Positions 655 through 8,984 of a stretch of DNA of 64,000 nucleotides are shown one piece after another; positions within the stretch are counted from its first letter, which is position 1; each line of letters begins with the position of its first letter. The notes under the pieces were generated by a model that ran no database searches, was not told where the DNA came from, and saw only the letters and a program-made list of their open reading frames with translations. The position numbers and the translations under genes are program-made. The stretch lies in assembly GCF_058153355.1 (NCBI RefSeq), contig NZ_CM177019.1. The stretch is one strand, 5' to 3'.

Positions 655-1554
655 CTAAACAGCACCTTTATACTTCAGCCTATCTATAAATAATGAGAAT
701 GCCGAGCCAGCATGTCGACGGTGTGGATAGTACAGGTGATAACCGGGTAAATCTGGTGTGAATTTATCCAAAACACGTATCAGTTTTTTTTCTTTAATAG
801 CCCGCTCAACCTGATCATAAGGTAGATACGCCAATCCATGCCCATCAATTGCAGCATCAATGATCAGGTCTATCGTATTCAGTAAAAGCTGACCTTCCAT
901 GCGAACACGAACTTCACGTCCACCGCGTATTAATCTCCAGCGATTTGCTGTACCCGATGTGGGAAGATACAAATTAATTGCCTGATGATCTATTAATTGT
1001 GACACTGACGTTGGAGCACTTCGACGAGAAAAATAATCCGGTGAGCCAACAATAGCCATTGGTATATCTGGCCCGATTCGAATGGCGATCATATCTTTAT
1101 CCATCTCCCCACCCAGACGGACGCCTGCATCAAAACGTTCAGAAACGACATCGGTCAAACCATAATCAATGGTAAGCTGGATATCAATTTCAGGATGCGA
1201 TTTCAGGAATGTGCGCATAGCTGGTAACAATATCGTTTTTGCTGCATGTTCTACAGTAGTAATACGTATTGTCCCGGATGGGCGGTTCTGCAGATCGCTC
1301 AGGGATGTCAGGGCAGAATCTATGTCATGCAACATAGGGCCAAGAACAGACAAAAGATGCTCGCCCGCTTCAGTGGGTACAACGCTGCGCGTGGTTCGCG
1401 TCAGAAGCCGCAATCCCAATCGTTCTTCTATACGGCGCACTATCTGGCTTAAAGCTGACTGCGCCATGCTCAGGCGGGCTGCTGCGCGAGTGAAGCTACG
1501 CTCCTCTGCAACGACGACAAACGCCATCAGATCAGCGATTTCTTCACGCTTCAT
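655..1554 (-). CDS. ycjZ: LysR-family transcriptional regulator
   Basis: 299-aa ORF with N-terminal winged-HTH (MKREEIADLMAFVVVAEERSFTRAAARLSMAQSALSQ) and LysR substrate-binding-type C-terminus; divergent from the hydrolase genes as in E. coli ycjZ/ycjY. Confidence 0.9.
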   Translation of the reverse strand: MKREEIADLMAFVVVAEERSFTRAAARLSMAQSALSQIVRRIEERLGLRLLTRTTRSVVPTEAGEHLLSVLGPMLHDIDSALTSLSDLQNRPSGTIRITTVEHAAKTILLPAMRTFLKSHPEIDIQLTIDYGLTDVVSERFDAGVRLGGEMDKDMIAIRIGPDIPMAIVGSPDYFSRRSAPTSVSQLIDHQAINLYLPTSGTANRWRLIRGGREVRVRMEGQLLLNTIDLIIDAAIDGHGLAYLPYDQVERAIKEKKLIRVLDKFTPDLPGYHLYYPHRRHAGSAFSLFIDRLKYKGAV

Positions 1555-1679
1555 TCAGTATCTCCATACAATCTATTAATCATTTAAATGATAGGTCTAA
1601 TCATAATTTAGGGTCTAATCAACTTAATGATCAATATCTATAGTGATATCACCAACCGTCAAAACGAACCGACAACTCC

Positions 1680-2612
1680 ATGAGGAACGGAATGATGAAT
1701 AATAAAGTCAGCTTCACTAACAGCAATAATCCAACCATCTCTTTGTCTGCAGTGATCTATTTCCCTCCAAAATTTGATGAAACCCGTCAGTATCCGGCAA
1801 TTGTGGTATCTCACCCAGGTGGGGGCGTTAAAGAGCAAACGGCCGGAACCTATGCCGAAAAACTGGCGGAAAAGGGATTTGTCACTATTGCTTATGACGC
1901 ATCTTATCAAGGTGAAAGCGGCGGCGAGCCGCGTCAGTTAGAAAACCCATACATTCGTACTGAAGACGTCAGTGCCGTGATTGATTACCTGACAACGCTT
2001 TCTTATGTCGACAATACCCGAATTGGTGCGATGGGAATTTGTGCCGGTGCAGGATATACAGCCAATGCTGCAATTCAGGATCGCCGCATCAAGGCCATCG
2101 CTACCGTTAGTGCGGTCAATATTGGTTCGATGTTCCGTAATGGTTGGGAAAACAATGTGAAATCTATTGATGCCCTACCATACGTTGACGCGGGTTCAAA
2201 CGCCCGAACCAGCGATATTAGCAGCGGAGAATACGCCACTATGCCACTGGCACCAATGAAGGAGTCCGATGCGCCGAACGAAGAACTGCGTCAGGCCTGG
2301 GAGTATTACCACACCCCTCGCGCGCAGTATCCAACAGCACCGGGTTACGCTACTTTGCGCAGCCTTAACCAGATTATTACCTATGATGCTTACCATATGG
2401 CGGAAGTGTACCTGACTCAGCCGATACAGATTGTGGCGGGCAGCCAGGCAGGGAGCAAATGGATGAGTGACGACCTGTACGATCGAGCATCAAGCCAGGA
2501 TAAACGCTATCACATTGTTGAAGGCGCAAACCATATGGATCTTTATGACGGCAAAGTCTATGTGGCTGAATCAATTTCAGTATTAGCTCCGTTCTTTGAG
2601 GAAACTCTGTAA
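1680..2612 (+). CDS. Alpha/beta-hydrolase (dienelactone-hydrolase-like), ycjY-family, copy 1
   Basis: 310-aa ORF; paralogous to the next gene (shared FPPKFDE..QYPAI..AYDAS.QGESGGEPR..RIGxxGxCxGxGY blocks). True start may be one of the ATGs at 1692-1697 (AGGAA upstream). Stop TAA overlaps the next ATG (taATG at 2610-2614). Confidence 0.8.
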   Translation: MRNGMMNNKVSFTNSNNPTISLSAVIYFPPKFDETRQYPAIVVSHPGGGVKEQTAGTYAEKLAEKGFVTIAYDASYQGESGGEPRQLENPYIRTEDVSAVIDYLTTLSYVDNTRIGAMGICAGAGYTANAAIQDRRIKAIATVSAVNIGSMFRNGWENNVKSIDALPYVDAGSNARTSDISSGEYATMPLAPMKESDAPNEELRQAWEYYHTPRAQYPTAPGYATLRSLNQIITYDAYHMAEVYLTQPIQIVAGSQAGSKWMSDDLYDRASSQDKRYHIVEGANHMDLYDGKVYVAESISVLAPFFEETL

Positions 2613-3551
2613 TGAAACATATTCAAATCCGTAATAGTGATATGGCCTGGCATATTGCTGCCAATATTCAGTTTCCACCAAATTTTGATGAGTCAAAACA
2701 GTATCCGGCGATTATCAGCGTCCATCCTTTTGGCAGTTGTAAGGAGCAGACGTCTGGCAATATCTATGGCAAGGCATTGGCTGAAAAAGGCTATGTCGTT
2801 CTCGCTTATGACGCCAGTTTCCAGGGAGAATCTGGTGGGGAGCCTCGTTGGATAGAAGATCCGACACAGCGCGTAGAGGATATTAGCCGTGTTATCGATT
2901 ATGCAGTAACTCTGCCATATGTTGATGCTGAACGCATTGGCGTGCTGGGTGTGTGTGTGGGGGGGGGGGGGTGGCTATGCCATTAATGCCGCGCTGACAG
3001 AAAAACGAATTAAAGCTGTAGTGAGTATTACGGGTGTTAATATCGGGCGTCTTTTTCGGGAAGGTTTCAGCAATTACGATCCGATTGGCGCATTGAATGC
3101 AATGGCGTCGCAACGAACCAAAGAGGCTCGTGGTGGAGAATTACAGATCAACGAATTACTTCCCGCCAGCCTGGATGCAGCAAAAGCCCATGGACTGACC
3201 GAACGCGATGTTTATGAAGCAACTGACTACTATAAAACACCACGCGGGCAACAACCGGGAGGTGCGACAAAAATGTTGTTCTCACATGCACAGAAAACGC
3301 TGGCCTGGGATGCCTTCGCATTTACTGAAGTGTTACTGACTCAGCCGGTGATGGTAGTAGTTGGTGAAAAAGTCGGTGCCTTCGGTGCTTATCGTGATGG
3401 ACTGGAAGTCTATGGCCGGGCGATGGTTTCGCAGGATCGTCAGTTAGTTTCGTTACCCGATTTCTCACATTATGAACTGTATGACAAACCGGAAGCAGTT
3501 CAGGAGGCGCTGGAAAAAGTTATTCCTTTTTTCAACACCCATCTGGGATAA
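2612..3551 (+). pseudogene. Alpha/beta-hydrolase, ycjY-family, copy 2, interrupted by a +1 frameshift in a 13-G homopolymer (2959-2971)
   Basis: ORF track splits it into 2612..2986 (ends ...GVCVGGGGWLCH*) and 2919..3551 (reads ...WVCVWGGGGGYAINAAL...). Removing one G gives a continuous ~312-aa frame, GVCVGGGGGYAINAALTEKRIK, collinear with copy 1. Confidence 0.75.
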
Positions 3552-3556
3552 GTTTC

Positions 3557-4207
3557 ATGAGAAATATTATGAAAAAAGTACTCATTCTTGGTGCTGGCGG
3601 TCAGATAGCCCGCCATGTGATTAATCAACTGGCAGATAAACAAACCATTAAACAAACTTTATTTGCTCGTCAGCCAGCAAAAATACACAAACCCTATCCA
3701 ACTAATAGCCAGATTATTATGGGGGATGTACTGAATCATGCAGCACTGAAGCAGGCCATGCAGGGACAGGATATTGTGTATGCCAACCTTACGGGGGAAG
3801 ATTTAGATATTCAGGCAAATTCAGTGATCGCTGCGATGAAAGCCTGTGATGTTAAACGTCTGATCTTTGTTCTTTCCCTCGGCATTTATGATGAAGTTCC
3901 AGGAAAATTTGGCGAATGGAATAATGCAGTTATTGGTGAGCCCCTAAAACCATTCCGCAGGGCTGCGGATGCAATTGAGGCTTCTGGACTGGAATATACA
4001 ATTCTTCGCCCTGCCTGGCTGACTGATGAAGATATTATTGATTATGAGCTTACCTCACGCAATGAACCATTCAAAGGTACGATCGTATCACGTAAGAGTG
4101 TCGCAGCATTAATCACAGATATCATCGATAAACCTGAGAAACACATTGGTGAGAATATAGGCATCAATCAACCCGGGACTGATGGTGATAAGCCCTTCTT
4201 CATGTAA
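3557..4207 (+). CDS. NAD(P)-binding Rossmann-fold protein (NmrA/SDR-like); probably the intact form of the locus annotated ymjC in K-12
   Basis: 216-aa ORF with N-terminal KKVLILGAGGQIARHV glycine-rich dinucleotide-binding motif; position between ycjY and mpaA. Confidence 0.7.
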   Translation: MRNIMKKVLILGAGGQIARHVINQLADKQTIKQTLFARQPAKIHKPYPTNSQIIMGDVLNHAALKQAMQGQDIVYANLTGEDLDIQANSVIAAMKACDVKRLIFVLSLGIYDEVPGKFGEWNNAVIGEPLKPFRRAADAIEASGLEYTILRPAWLTDEDIIDYELTSRNEPFKGTIVSRKSVAALITDIIDKPEKHIGENIGINQPGTDGDKPFFM

Positions 4208-4225
4208 ATCAATTATATAGCTACC

Positions 4226-4257
4226 ATCGTACTGTACTATGTGCAGTACGATTTATT
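4226..4257 (+). terminator. Hairpin (atcgtactg / cagtacgat) followed by ttatt
   Basis: 9-bp inverted repeat with 9-nt loop starting 19 bp after the stop at 4207, followed by a T-rich run. Confidence 0.55.
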
Positions 4258-4371
4258 AAACTTATTAAGGTGAACTGATCAATCAGATGCGATTAACATG
4301 TGTAGAACCAGTAAGAATAAAATACGCCATGTATATAACATTACGACAATTCTAATATCTGCACATCAATG

Positions 4372-4408
4372 AAAATACAAACAACTTCCGGCAAAAAAGT
4401 GATACAAG
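4372..4408. repeat. Copy B of the imperfect ~35-bp direct repeat, upstream of mpaA
   Basis: See 376-410. Confidence 0.6.
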
Positions 4409-4497
4409 ATCGATAACATAGCGTTGAAGAAAAGGATTTGATAATCCGCAAAATTTGCACAACACTGCCTGTAATACTTCCTGAACCAGAGACGATT

Positions 4498-5226
4498 ATG
4501 ACCGTAACCCGCCCACGCGCCGAACGCGGCGCATTTCCGCCCGGAACAGAACATTACGGACGTTCATTATTGGGCGCGCCGTTAATCTGGTTTCCGGCCC
4601 CTGCAGCCAGTCGCGAAAGTGGTTTGATTCTGGCTGGCACTCACGGTGATGAAAACTCTTCGGTCGTCACGCTCTCCTGTGCTCTGCGGACTTTGACACC
4701 GTCTTTGCGCCGCCATCATGTAGTGCTGTGTGTGAATCCTGACGGCTGCCAGTTAGGGTTACGGGCCAATGCTAATGGTGTGGATTTAAACAGAAACTTT
4801 CCGGCGGCGAACTGGAAGGAGGGTGAAACGGTTTATCGCTGGAACAGCGCGGCTGAAGAACGTGATGTCGTATTACTGACAGGTGACAAACCTGGCTCCG
4901 AACCTGAAACCCAGGCGCTGTGCCAGCTTATACACCGCATTCAACCTGCCTGGGTGGTCTCATTCCACGATCCACTGGCCTGTATTGAAGATCCCAGACA
5001 CAGCGAATTAGGCGAATGGCTGGCCCAGGCGTTTGGATTGCCTCTGGTAACCAGCGTCGGTTATGAAACTCCTGGCTCTTTCGGCAGTTGGTGTGCGGAT
5101 CTCAACCTGCATTGCATCACCGCAGAGTTTCCACCTATCTCCTCCGACGAAGCCAGCGAAAAATACCTCTTTGCGATGGCTAACTTGCTGCGCTGGCATC
5201 CTAAAGATGCAATGCGCCCGTCGTGA
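4498..5226 (+). CDS. mpaA: Murein peptide amidase A (gamma-D-Glu-Dap amidase, zinc carboxypeptidase family)
   Basis: ORF 4438..5226; internal start MTVTRPRAERGAFPPGTEHYGRS... gives 242 aa matching E. coli MpaA; HGDE zinc-binding motif present. Confidence 0.9.
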   Translation: MTVTRPRAERGAFPPGTEHYGRSLLGAPLIWFPAPAASRESGLILAGTHGDENSSVVTLSCALRTLTPSLRRHHVVLCVNPDGCQLGLRANANGVDLNRNFPAANWKEGETVYRWNSAAEERDVVLLTGDKPGSEPETQALCQLIHRIQPAWVVSFHDPLACIEDPRHSELGEWLAQAFGLPLVTSVGYETPGSFGSWCADLNLHCITAEFPPISSDEASEKYLFAMANLLRWHPKDAMRPS

Positions 5227-6166
5227 ATTGAAGCGCTGGTTCCACATCTACCGCCAGCCAGGTCGGTCCGTCAAGATCAGCAAAACTGACCTGCGGCACC
5301 AGCGGTAAAGCGGCGCTAATGGCACGAGAGGTACACAACATGCAGCCCAGCATCAGACTGAAACCTTGTGCACGCGCTTCGGTCGCCAGCGCCAGCGCTT
5401 CCGTCAGGCCACCCGTTTTATCGAGCTTAATGTTAACCATCTCATAGCGCCCTTTCAGCGCCTTCAGATTGCTACGAGTATGACAACTTTCATCTGCACA
5501 AATCGGTAACGGATGAATAAAATTCTCCAGTGCCGCATCGTCCTGCGCAGGAAGCGGTTGTTCAAGCATCGCAACGCCTAAATCCGCCAATAGCTGGCAA
5601 CGCGCCGCCAACCCTTCTGCACGCCAGGATTCATTTGCATCAACGATTAGCGTCGCATCGGGTACAGCCGTGCGAATTGCTACCATCCGCTCACTGATAA
5701 GATGGTTATCCAGCTTCACTTTCAGTAATTTCGCGCCTGCCTGCCAGAGTGTTGATGCACTATTGGCCATCTGATCAGGCGTACCGATGACTACCGTCTG
5801 GGCAGTGGTGACTGTCTCGGGAAGCGTTATGCCGATCAAATCAGCCAGCGATTGCTGCTGTTTTCGCGCCGCCAGATCCCACAATGCACAATCCAGCGCA
5901 TTACGTGCTGCGCCGGCAGGGAGAATTTTTTGCAACTCCTCCCGTGTCAGCCCTTTCTCTAATTGCGGCACGACGCTCATAATTTGCGCCATTACCGAGG
6001 CATCACTTTCTCCATAACGCGGATACGGCGTGCATTCACCGGTGCCTTTAATACCTTCTTCTTCCAGTTCAACCACCACCACGCGCGCTTCACTACGACT
6101 TCCCCGAGCAATCACAAACGGGGTATGTAAGGGCCAGGCTTCCTCAAATACCTTAACGATTCTCAT
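5201..6166 (-). CDS. ycjG: L-Ala-D/L-Glu epimerase (enolase superfamily)
   Basis: ORF 5201..6208; start at MRIVKVFEEAWPLHTPFVIARGSR gives 321 aa; convergent with mpaA and overlapping its 3' end by 26 bp. Confidence 0.9.
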   Translation of the reverse strand: MRIVKVFEEAWPLHTPFVIARGSRSEARVVVVELEEEGIKGTGECTPYPRYGESDASVMAQIMSVVPQLEKGLTREELQKILPAGAARNALDCALWDLAARKQQQSLADLIGITLPETVTTAQTVVIGTPDQMANSASTLWQAGAKLLKVKLDNHLISERMVAIRTAVPDATLIVDANESWRAEGLAARCQLLADLGVAMLEQPLPAQDDAALENFIHPLPICADESCHTRSNLKALKGRYEMVNIKLDKTGGLTEALALATEARAQGFSLMLGCMLCTSRAISAALPLVPQVSFADLDGPTWLAVDVEPALQFTTGALHL

Positions 6167-6284
6167 CTTTACTCCTTGTTGTCGCGGTGGTCTGCGGATT
6201 AAGCGCAAATAGCGTTTGCTGTGTTATTGACAGTTAGCATAAACTAGGTGTGACGTTAACTATATGTAAACAGGAAAGATAATC

Positions 6285-6788
6285 ATGTCACAAACCGTTC
6301 ATTTCCAGGGCAACCCGGTTACAGTAGCCAATTCCATCCCGCTGGCGGGTAGCAAAGCGCAGACTTTTACTCTCGTGGCAAAAGATCTGTCTGACGTCAC
6401 CCTCGGTCAGTTTGCGGGTAAACGCAAAGTGCTGAACATTTTCCCGAGTATTGATACCGGTGTTTGCGCCGCATCAGTACGTAAGTTTAACCAACTGGCA
6501 ACTGAGATCGACAACACCGTTGTGCTGTGTATCTCTGCCGATCTGCCGTTCGCCCAGTCTCGTTTCTGCGGCGCAGAAGGTCTGAACAACGTTATCACCC
6601 TCTCCACTTTCCGTAACGCTGAATTCCTGCAAGCCTACGGTGTGGCAATTGCTGATGGCCCACTGAAAGGTCTGGCAGCGCGTGCCGTTGTGGTTATCGA
6701 TGAAAATGACAATGTGATTTTCAGCCAGCTGGTTGATGAAATCACCACCGAGCCGGATTACGAAGCAGCTCTTGCTGTACTGCGCTAA
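6285..6788 (+). CDS. tpx: Thiol peroxidase (atypical 2-Cys peroxiredoxin)
   Basis: 167-aa [38 protein letters not shown]...; recognised as E. coli Tpx. Confidence 0.95.
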
Positions 6789-6796
6789 ACAACTGT

Positions 6797-6835
6797 GCCG
6801 TTCACTGAATCACCACCGGTGAACGGCAGTTTTTG
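6797..6835 (+). terminator. Rho-independent terminator of tpx
   Basis: gccgttcac - 12-nt loop - gtgaacggc followed by agtttttga, 9 bp after the tpx stop. Confidence 0.75.
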
Positions 6836-6929
6836 ATCTACCAATCCCACTATTTTCCAGAGTTCCTGCCACTATTCCCCCTAACCGTTGTGCATTAAGA
6901 TTGTTCTTTGCCATTATTAGCCCAGCGGA

Positions 6930-8984
6930 GTGATGACTATTATGGATGATAAACAAATTACGGTCTGGCTTAAACACAATTGCTGTTCAACGGACATTCC
7001 TGCCATTGCCGAGGCACTAACGAACCATGCAGAATGGCTTTTAGAGCTAGCGCCAGATCCTATTGAACAAGGTAGTTCATGTTTACCGCCGACAGCTGCA
7101 GCCGGTATTTTTCTTGGCGCAGCGGCGATGGTTCACTGCGGCGAGGCTAGTGGTGCAGAAACCTGGCTCGAAGCAGCCATTACTGATTACCATTTCTTTA
7201 ATCCAAATGGATATAGTTCATGGAGAGGCAGTACGCCTGTTTTTACAGCATTATCGCGTTACCCGGCATTAAGAATGGTGTTATTTAACGCCGCTTGCGC
7301 AATGGAAGACTGGAATAAAGCATCCGCTGTTCTTGAATCGCTTTTCCATGCCGGCGATGTCCCGGAAGATAACCCTGTCGCCCCAAATTTTACCCCTTAT
7401 GCGCTGAAAGCGTTTATCGCGGATTACCACCCGTTAGGGCCTGCTTATTATGATGAAACCTGGTTGCTGGCAAAACAAGCGTGGTTAATTAATGCGGGCG
7501 TTCTGGATGAGCGAACCTGTAATACCTGGAAGCAATATACCCGCCACTTGCGCCATTTGATCCACAATACACAGTTTGCCGATGCGCTCTCTTTTGTACG
7601 CAGTAAAAAAGAACCGTTAAATCATATCCATACCTACTCAGACTTTTATCTGTATGCGATTGGTTTATTTTCTTATACTAGTCAGCTAAATGAAGCGCTG
7701 ACCTGGATAAAACAGTTAATCCACAACAATGATGGTCATTTCTGTGATCTTTTCGTTTCAACTGGCAAAGAGCGCCGAATAAAGCCTGAACTTAGTACCT
7801 TGCTGAATAATCTCTTGCACAGCGCAGAGTTTCAGGCGTTGCAGGATAAATATCTCACCGTCGGACATGATGTTGTGTATTCTGGTCCCTTCATGTCACT
7901 TTATGAAAAGGTTCTTGGCGGTAAGTCCCGAAAGCGCTGCGCGATTAGTCGAAAATTAATCTCGCCCGGCGAAGCGGTTTATGAATATCGTCAGCTGGAT
8001 AGTGTGGAATATATTGCAGCAAAAGCGGCCTTTCAGACATCTGAGCTAAATAATATCGCCCACCGGCATCATAATGATAGTTATCAGTGGCATGAATTTG
8101 CTGCCCAATGGCCTCGTCGGGGTTCACTTTCTCACCCAGATATTGCCCGTTATTTGTTTGAGCGCCAGGAAGGAAAATGCTTTGATGCCGCAGAGTTTAT
8201 ACAACTGATTGCGGAACCGTTTGTCTTTCCGATGCGTTTCATATGGGTTGCCGGGTTGTCCTTTGAATTACATCAGTATCCGGATGCCTATTTCGTAAAT
8301 GACAATATGGCGGGTGAATTTGTTAATCTCTGCTGGATGGCTATGAAATGCGGACATGCTGGAGACATTTTCAAACAACTGGCCCACGAGCCGCATGACG
8401 TTGCTGACCCTATTTACGCCATGCTCGCCACGTTTGACCGCGCTGATTGCCGTAGCGCCGCCGCCGCGCACTTTGGACAACCGGAACTACCGGAAATAAT
8501 GGCACTGGCTTTCAGTTCGAGGTTATCGCTGGACAGCGTCCTTACCATCGCTGAGTTTGGTAAAAATCAGCCGCGATTTTCACATGCGCTAGCAACGGCC
8601 CTCCTGCGTTACAACCTGCACATCTACTCAAACTATATGCCGCAGGTTAACTGGTTCCTTCAGGGGCTGGAACACTATGCTTTGGCAAAAGGCGGTCAAC
8701 TTTTAAATTTCTTTGTGCATATTCCAGAACAAATTCCCGTTCTGGCGACCATGCTGGAACATGGCGTATTAGTGCGTGGGATCGGTGAAGGTGCCTACGA
8801 TGGTTATGATAATTCAGCAAATTCATTTCATCATGCCGCCGTGATGCACTGCCTCACGCACGCGCCGGAAAAAGTCCGCTACTGGATGGAAACACCCTGG
8901 ATTCAGAACTATTTAGTGAATGCGCCGCTGCGTCAAACGGCGCGCCATGTGGAAGCCTGGCATAAAAAGTTTGGCATCAAATGA
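6930..8984 (+). CDS. Orphan 684-aa ORF of unknown function; predicted cytoplasmic, aromatic- and His-rich, no motif I can assign
   Basis: Uninterrupted 2055-nt ORF; GGAG at 6922-6925 just upstream of ATGs at 6930/6933/6942; no signal peptide or TM segment evident; no canonical Walker A (only a near-miss LGGKSRK); sits between tpx and tyrR where K-12 has only a short spacer. Confidence 0.75.
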   Translation: MMTIMDDKQITVWLKHNCCSTDIPAIAEALTNHAEWLLELAPDPIEQGSSCLPPTAAAGIFLGAAAMVHCGEASGAETWLEAAITDYHFFNPNGYSSWRGSTPVFTALSRYPALRMVLFNAACAMEDWNKASAVLESLFHAGDVPEDNPVAPNFTPYALKAFIADYHPLGPAYYDETWLLAKQAWLINAGVLDERTCNTWKQYTRHLRHLIHNTQFADALSFVRSKKEPLNHIHTYSDFYLYAIGLFSYTSQLNEALTWIKQLIHNNDGHFCDLFVSTGKERRIKPELSTLLNNLLHSAEFQALQDKYLTVGHDVVYSGPFMSLYEKVLGGKSRKRCAISRKLISPGEAVYEYRQLDSVEYIAAKAAFQTSELNNIAHRHHNDSYQWHEFAAQWPRRGSLSHPDIARYLFERQEGKCFDAAEFIQLIAEPFVFPMRFIWVAGLSFELHQYPDAYFVNDNMAGEFVNLCWMAMKCGHAGDIFKQLAHEPHDVADPIYAMLATFDRADCRSAAAAHFGQPELPEIMALAFSSRLSLDSVLTIAEFGKNQPRFSHALATALLRYNLHIYSNYMPQVNWFLQGLEHYALAKGGQLLNFFVHIPEQIPVLATMLEHGVLVRGIGEGAYDGYDNSANSFHHAAVMHCLTHAPEKVRYWMETPWIQNYLVNAPLRQTARHVEAWHKKFGIK

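Follow-up and report, generated by a model that had tools for sequence, protein, structure and literature searches.

The window analyzed here is a stretch of 64,000 nucleotides (RefSeq assembly GCF_058153355.1, contig NZ_CM177019.1), within which two convergent genes meet tail to tail. The gene on the plus strand is mpaA (4498-5226; a 729-nt gene in RefSeq), which encodes the murein tripeptide amidase of 242 amino acids and ends with TGA at 5224-5226. The gene on the minus strand is ycjG (5201-6166; 966 nt in RefSeq), which encodes the L-Ala-D/L-Glu epimerase of 321 amino acids and ends with TAG (CTA on the plus strand) at 5201-5203. The reading frames thus have 26 bp in common at their 3' ends (5201-5226, ctaaagatgcaatgcgcccgtcgtga). 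On the MpaA side the shared bases comprise two bases of P235, the codons of K236 to S242 and the stop; on the YcjG side they comprise two bases of F314, the codons of T315 to L321 and the stop. The two frames are in phase (123:132), with codon position 3 of mpaA opposite position 2 of ycjG, position 2 opposite position 3, and the first positions of both genes facing each other.

Both products are real proteins. The MpaA sequence aligned with PDB 5HXD over 237 of 237 residues with one substitution, and matched PDB 4AXV as well. YcjG matched PDB 1JPD over its full length, to the last residue of the C-terminal LHL. RefSeq annotates the same 26-bp overlap in Escherichia coli K-12 MG1655 (ycjG, b1325, 1388930..1389895 on the plus strand; mpaA, b1326, 1389870..1390598 on the minus strand), and the same mpaA/ycjG overlap in E. 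coli 2017.09.02CC and 2013C-4282. The coordinates, gene names and size given in a preliminary description of the locus agree with the reading frames and with RefSeq; its proviso that the true stops might lie elsewhere is answered by the RefSeq stops of K-12 and the other strains, which are those of the window. The pair has what is expected of convergent coding genes: real proteins on opposite strands and shared bases that include both stops, short and conserved. Above about 60 bp, long overlaps come under suspicion as mispredictions. Possible misprediction is also how long overlaps are treated in PMC2478687. In the mpaA frame antisense to ycjG a stop occurs about every 23 codons, so the eight open codons beyond 5200 are unremarkable by chance. 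The overlap is real and owes nothing to faulty annotation.

The locus was found in 5413 of 5426 complete E. coli genomes. The best identity for the 2-kb segment at 4300-6300 among these 5426 genomes was 97.9%, hence the window comes from a lineage without a close representative among them. Within the overlap itself K-12 differs from the window at one base. Position 5214 is G in the window and T in K-12, and this change alters both proteins at once (I239M in MpaA and E318A in YcjG). E. coli 2013C-4282 also has G at this position. None of the complete E. coli genomes matched the 86 bp around the overlap at 100%, and, among the matches listed, five records showed 97.7-98.8% identity; the variant would thus be present in no more than a few of the 5407 genomes with a match. 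A single base that changes two proteins exemplifies the cost of sharing.

Several neighboring genes of the window are of note in their own right. Upstream of mpaA, all on the plus strand, lie ycjY (1680-2612, with 96% identity to K-12), another ycjY-like hydrolase (32% identity) split into ORFs at 2612-2986 and 2919-3551 by a frameshift or as a pseudogene, and an intact gene for a 216-aa NAD(P)H-binding SDR (3557-4207). At the corresponding place upstream of mpaA, K-12 keeps the fragments ymjD/ymjC alone. On the other side, an ORF of 684 amino acids (6930-8984, plus strand), with no Pfam match, separates tpx from tyrR, which are adjacent in K-12 and most E. coli. This ORF is found in 32 of the 5426 complete E. 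coli genomes, where it is annotated as 'hypothetical protein', and it would interrupt the read-through from tyrR to ycjG antisense over tpx that is described for K-12 in PMC7373196.

We compared the junction across relatives by an alignment scan with MpaA of species-representative genomes. The best 80 of 340 hits correspond to 80 Enterobacteriaceae loci, for which overlap lengths were obtained from the stops found by a frame scan from the start of the alignment. In all 80 of these best hits, ycjG is convergent and directly downstream of mpaA, and in 74 of the 80 the genes overlap. A 10-bp overlap is the commonest form, with 42 loci in Klebsiella, Raoultella, Kluyvera, Kosakonia, Enterobacter, Atlantibacter and others; 41 of these were counted automatically, and one, a frameshifted assembly left out of the automatic count, has a junction that reads as the 10-bp type and was added by hand. 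The 26-bp overlap is seen at 26 loci in Escherichia, Salmonella and Citrobacter. The remaining overlaps measure 19 bp (three loci, two in Phytobacter and one in a Kosakonia sp.), 4 bp (Pluralibacter gergoviae), 33 bp (a Pluralibacter sp.) and 47 bp (a Citrobacter youngae locus, L023), the last three at one locus each. Six loci, in Buttiauxella and the group L037-L042, have a gap of 7-331 bp instead. Outside those 80 loci, overlaps of 19 bp in Cronobacter and 21 bp in Erwinia were found, together with one of 26 bp in Pantoea that has a different junction sequence; the genes are 5 bp apart in Serratia and 24 bp apart in the distant gammaproteobacterium Microbulbifer. The gene that encroaches on its neighbor differs as well. 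The tail of YcjG reaches into mpaA in Erwinia, Pantoea, Cronobacter and some Citrobacter, whereas in Escherichia it is the tail of MpaA that reaches into ycjG.

Two further loci lack an adjacent ycjG. In Vibrio campbellii, mpaA adjoins mppA and is followed by a MurR-like regulator; in Dickeya dadantii, mpaA again adjoins mppA, with tpx directly after it. Pairing of mpaA with ycjG is therefore not a general rule among gammaproteobacteria. A different departure is seen within one Enterobacteriaceae clade (L038-L040 and L042), in which mpaA and ycjG stand 284-331 bp apart (for example, 3730-4013 in L038). The spacer of L038-L040 holds a textbook bidirectional terminator (AAAAAAACCCGCC...GGCGGGCTTTTTTTT), and that of all four loci an apparent hydrophobic ORF of about 40 amino acids on the ycjG strand. 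In L037 and L042, REP-like palindromes occupy the place of the terminator. The inserted ORF and terminator of this clade indicate that uncoupling of the two pathway genes is tolerated. L040 (CACSKA010000006.1), a record with the title 'Chryseobacterium sp. 18061', has an mpaA-ycjG locus of Enterobacteriaceae type that is almost the same in layout as that of 'Citrobacter sp. 18056' (L039); its assembly is probably mislabelled or contaminated. By this comparison of genomes, the spacer-less convergent pairing is evidently old, and the length and phase of the overlap are a lineage-specific variable.

The source of the variation was sought in a junction alignment of 21 representative loci. The mpaA strand of the 10-bp genera ends in CCT CAG AGA TGA and the opposite strand in CAT CTC TGA, which gives YcjG a terminal H-L followed by the stop. 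The mpaA strand of the 26-bp clade reads CCT AGA GAT G or CCT AAA GAT G at the same place, such that CCTCAGAGATGA in the 10-bp genera corresponds to CCTAGAGATG or CCTAAAGATG in the 26-bp clade. MpaA has 237 amino acids in the 10-bp genera, compared to 242 in the window. The end of ycjG in the 26-bp clade lies 1 nt closer to the start of mpaA, and the overlap has passed from phase 1 to phase 2 (mod 3). The mpaA stop is TAA in most relatives of the 26-bp type and TGA in the window. These differences can be accounted for by the loss of a single base in the ycjG stop, which would convert TGAG to TAG (CTC-TGA-GG to CTC-TAG-G on the minus strand). YcjG would emerge from this deletion with the same length and the same last residues, TAG replacing TGA. 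The frame of mpaA would be shifted by -1 two codons ahead of its own TGA, with two residues replaced and five added; it would then be read antisense to the conserved FTTGxLHL of YcjG until the next in-frame stop. The MpaA tail K236-S242 of the window (KDAMRPS, 5203-5223) would accordingly be of frameshift origin, in place of an ancestral end in QR and stop. Since the 10-bp state is the widespread one, we infer that the 26-bp form is derived from it, by parsimony over the taxon sample rather than from a rooted tree.

Other changes at the same junction can be followed within Citrobacter. Three loci of the C. youngae group, in C. youngae CCUG 30791 and two Citrobacter isolates, near 3683-3708, show CCTTGAGAT where the related sequence is CCTAAAGAT. 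This two-base change (AA to TG) destroyed the TAG of ycjG and created an earlier TGA of mpaA together, and the 26-bp overlap was moved 21 bp upstream. At L023 the ycjG stop alone was lost, resulting in the 47-bp overlap. E. coli has a counted total of 58 convergent coding overlaps; the usual origin of such overlaps is a stop-codon mutation, and (123:132) is the commonest phase among those of at least 5 bp (PMC2174442). The mpaA/ycjG junction resembles these short convergent pairs of Lillo & Krakauer (2007, PMC2174442) in having opposite strands with a few tens of shared bases at the 3' ends, the (123:132) phase, an origin at a stop codon and no intergenic terminator. It differs from them in the nature of the event, as the one-base deletion proposed here would keep a ycjG stop (TGA to TAG) and frameshift mpaA rather than turn a stop into a sense codon. 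It differs also in the unusual persistence of some overlap across genera.

We next consider which of the two proteins constrains the shared bases. Mean nucleotide entropy was calculated by codon position within the 26-bp clade (n = 23). The values for ycjG at positions 1, 2 and 3 are 0.37, 0.11 and 0.85 inside the overlap, and 0.23, 0.19 and 1.13 in the upstream codons. For mpaA they are 0.37, 0.85 and 0.11 inside the overlap, compared to 0.16, 0.05 and 1.02 upstream. Within the overlap, the pattern is normal for ycjG and inverted for mpaA. The clade has 17 forms of the MpaA tail against a near-constant FTTGxLHL in YcjG. The alignment with Vibrio MpaA ends at residue 235, with the tail of the window protein beyond it, and the chain sequence in 5HXD ends at D237. 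The inverted entropy of mpaA, together with a variable tail outside the conserved domain, shows at the level of sequence variation that the overlap evolves under the ycjG frame and that the MpaA tail is a passenger of the constraint on ycjG.

The packing of the two genes bears on how their transcripts end. The preliminary description held that neither gene can have a conventional terminator and that each transcript runs antisense into the other. A promoter and terminator scan of 4000-7000 returned four terminator-like sites compared to 3.0 expected by chance, none of them after either stop. Four stretches in and beyond the region of the two stops were folded; a hairpin with a U-tract appeared in none of them, and a single one had a modest z-score of -2.2. 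No intrinsic terminator was found within approximately 150 nt after the mpaA or the ycjG stop, a bidirectional intrinsic terminator (G+C-rich hairpin with A-tract and U-tract) is absent at or near 5201-5226, and a search of 4000-7000 against Rfam at E<=1 gave no match. A small hairpin at 5197-5211 (GCATC-CTAAA-GATGC) was considered and dropped, since neither Citrobacter nor the 10-bp genera preserve it. As the genes leave no DNA between them and a hairpin plus U-tract is missing, each transcript would have to enter the partner gene. The first part of the earlier claim stands to the extent that no terminator follows either stop and that there is no room for one between the genes; it is too strong as an impossibility, since 21 of the 58 E. 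coli convergent overlaps carry an intrinsic terminator inside the partner gene (PMC2174442). The lack of intrinsic terminators suggests that each transcript is probably ended by Rho, or at inefficient or diffuse sites, inside the partner. Beyond the mpaA stop the RNA contains more C than G, a composition that serves as a heuristic for Rho loading and is not in itself evidence of termination. A literature search for mpaA with Rho returned the acronym in unrelated uses alone, and transcript-end mapping for mpaA or ycjG was not found in the literature search.

Published transcriptome analyses are consistent with the second part of the claim, that of mutually antisense transcripts. A catalogue of excludons in MG1655 includes ycjG-mpaA among 165 convergent pairs and tpx-ycjG among 16 divergent ones, and names mpaA-ycjG-tpx as one of three 'noncontiguous operons'; ycjG-mpaA and the trio are both listed in at least 50% of the 58 RNA-seq samples of E. 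coli (PMC12288877). The criterion of ExcludonFinder is an overlap of transcript boundaries (PMC12288877), so that overlapping coding sequences are listed automatically once both genes are expressed. Duplex reads from the RNase III/p19 experiments in the supplement of PMC7373196 fall within mpaA, some 520-600 nt short of its 3' end, with low counts of 100-315. The passages of that supplement that concern these genes give no reads at the 26-bp overlap itself, and the pair is absent from the top-20 cluster table in the main text. In E. coli, 276 of 370 convergent operons (75%) overlap at their 3' ends, by a mean of 286 nt (PMC4161252); a transcript overlap between mpaA and ycjG is thus not distinctive.

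The preliminary description had also proposed that transcriptional interference between the two genes could have regulatory meaning. This proposal finds no support. The length and the phase of the overlap vary by genus, one clade carries a terminator and an ORF between the genes, and three quarters of convergent operons overlap in any event. Moreover, MpaA and YcjG act consecutively, YcjG epimerizing the L-Ala-D-Glu product (PMC2954226), and both genes belong to the regulon of the repressor PgrR (PMC5934670). It is hard to see why two consecutive and co-repressed enzymes should exclude each other. Expression of both genes is weak (about 25-110 units, compared to 1500-5000 for tpx), and ycjG correlates with mpaA at r=+0.57 over a tiny sample (n=6 columns, of conditions not given) in a table of the PMC7373196 supplement. 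At such low expression the antisense overlap is probably tolerated and not used. The reading that we prefer, and consider likely, is that of an ordinary tail-to-tail overlap in a packed, anciently linked pathway pair, the stop positions of which have drifted, with no evident function of its own. A point against this neutral reading is that terminator-less packing has been kept across all the sampled Enterobacteriaceae genera and in the Erwinia and Pantoea representatives, which could reflect selection for coupled transcription; the excludon and noncontiguous-operon listings and the duplex reads inside mpaA also count against it.

The foremost rival is that the pair is a functional convergent excludon, in which the absence of terminators was selected so that transcription of the operon from ycjY to mpaA and that of ycjG interfere with each other. 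Polymerase collision, together with RNase III cleavage of the 3' duplex, would then set the ratio of the consecutive enzymes. The RNA-seq listing for MG1655 (PMC12288877), the p19-captured double-stranded reads within mpaA (PMC7373196), the missing intrinsic terminators after both stops, the zero or negative spacing in 74 of the 80 Enterobacteriaceae species (best 80 of 340 hits) and also in Erwinia and Pantoea, and the raised synteny of excludon pairs in general all speak for it. Several points speak against it: overlapping coding sequences enter the listing automatically once both genes are expressed, the double-stranded reads are few and the pair is missing from the top-20 clusters of the main-text table, and in one clade the genes are parted by a small ORF together with a bidirectional terminator. 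Mutual exclusion would, in addition, be counter-productive for enzymes that act in sequence under a shared repressor, and their weak expression values rise together. Excludons are likened to mpaA/ycjG by the complementary 3' ends of their transcripts (Conway et al. 2014, PMC4161252; ExcludonFinder 2025, PMC12288877), and yet they are defined by overlapping untranslated regions and by reciprocal expression. The overlap of mpaA and ycjG lies in the coding regions, and reciprocal expression would be odd for a consecutive, co-regulated pair. We regard a functional excludon as unlikely. Were it true, it would be an instance of antisense coupling of two enzymes that follow each other in peptidoglycan recycling.

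A broader version of the same idea, that the zero-spacer, terminator-less arrangement was selected across Enterobacterales as a device for coupling at the level of RNA, appears to us more doubtful still. Such a device would operate through the 3' duplex or through read-through into tpx, and the 26-bp overlap would be its visible footprint. It would balance consecutive steps of murein-tripeptide catabolism, or tie them to the defense against oxidative stress.

We give yet less credence to a noncontiguous operon, in which transcripts from mpaA would cross ycjG in antisense and continue into tpx, co-expressing tpx and silencing ycjG. The listing of mpaA-ycjG-tpx for E. coli (PMC12288877), the location of mpaA and tpx on one strand, to either side of ycjG, and the lack of a strong terminator in the RNA downstream of the mpaA stop are what recommends it. 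The listing, however, apparently arises from the presence of ycjG in both the convergent and the divergent lists, without a demonstrated continuous transcript. Expression of tpx is 16-46 times that of mpaA in the supplement values of PMC7373196, which implies that tpx has its own promoter, and the promoter and terminator scan placed a promoter-like site at 6256-6283. For the antisense RNA documented over tpx in K-12, PMC7373196 names tyrR/ycjG, and not mpaA, as the source. Furthermore, the untranslated, C-rich antisense stretch of 966 nt would by the same compositional heuristic be a likely substrate for Rho. Finally, that one stop is wrongly placed and the overlap of the proteins only apparent is hardly credible: the chain in 5HXD, with 237 residues, does lack the last five that are annotated, but the reading frames fix both stops with no earlier in-frame stop in either gene, the YcjG sequence of 1JPD reaches the final annotated residue, eight bases of sense codons would remain shared with ycjG even if MpaA ended at D237, and the overlap recurs in 74 of the 80 related species (best 80 of 340 genome hits).

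Two older descriptions offer further comparisons. The ilvA-ilvY genes are reportedly a classical case of convergent overlapping transcription units (Sameshima, Wek & Hatfield, 1989, cited in PMC4161252). As in that case, the two convergent E. coli genes mpaA and ycjG would have transcripts that reach into each other. Noncontiguous operons are said to have been described by Saenz-Lahoya et al. (2019, cited in PMC12288877); mpaA, ycjG and tpx have the same order of same-strand, opposite-strand and same-strand genes, and differ in that no continuous mpaA-to-tpx transcript is documented and in that tpx is expressed far more highly than mpaA.

The overlap of mpaA and ycjG is ordinary and already known, through the reference annotation and through the cataloguing of the transcript overlap. 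The earlier surmise that it was a known feature was correct, given its presence in the K-12 annotation and that of ycjG-mpaA in the excludon list (PMC12288877). What the present analysis adds is that the overlap is family-wide and variable in length and phase, that a one-base deletion can explain the 26-bp form of Escherichia, Salmonella and Citrobacter, and that selection on the shared bases follows ycjG alone. The finding has little weight beyond book-keeping; it is a clean teaching case for the origin and the drift of convergent overlaps.
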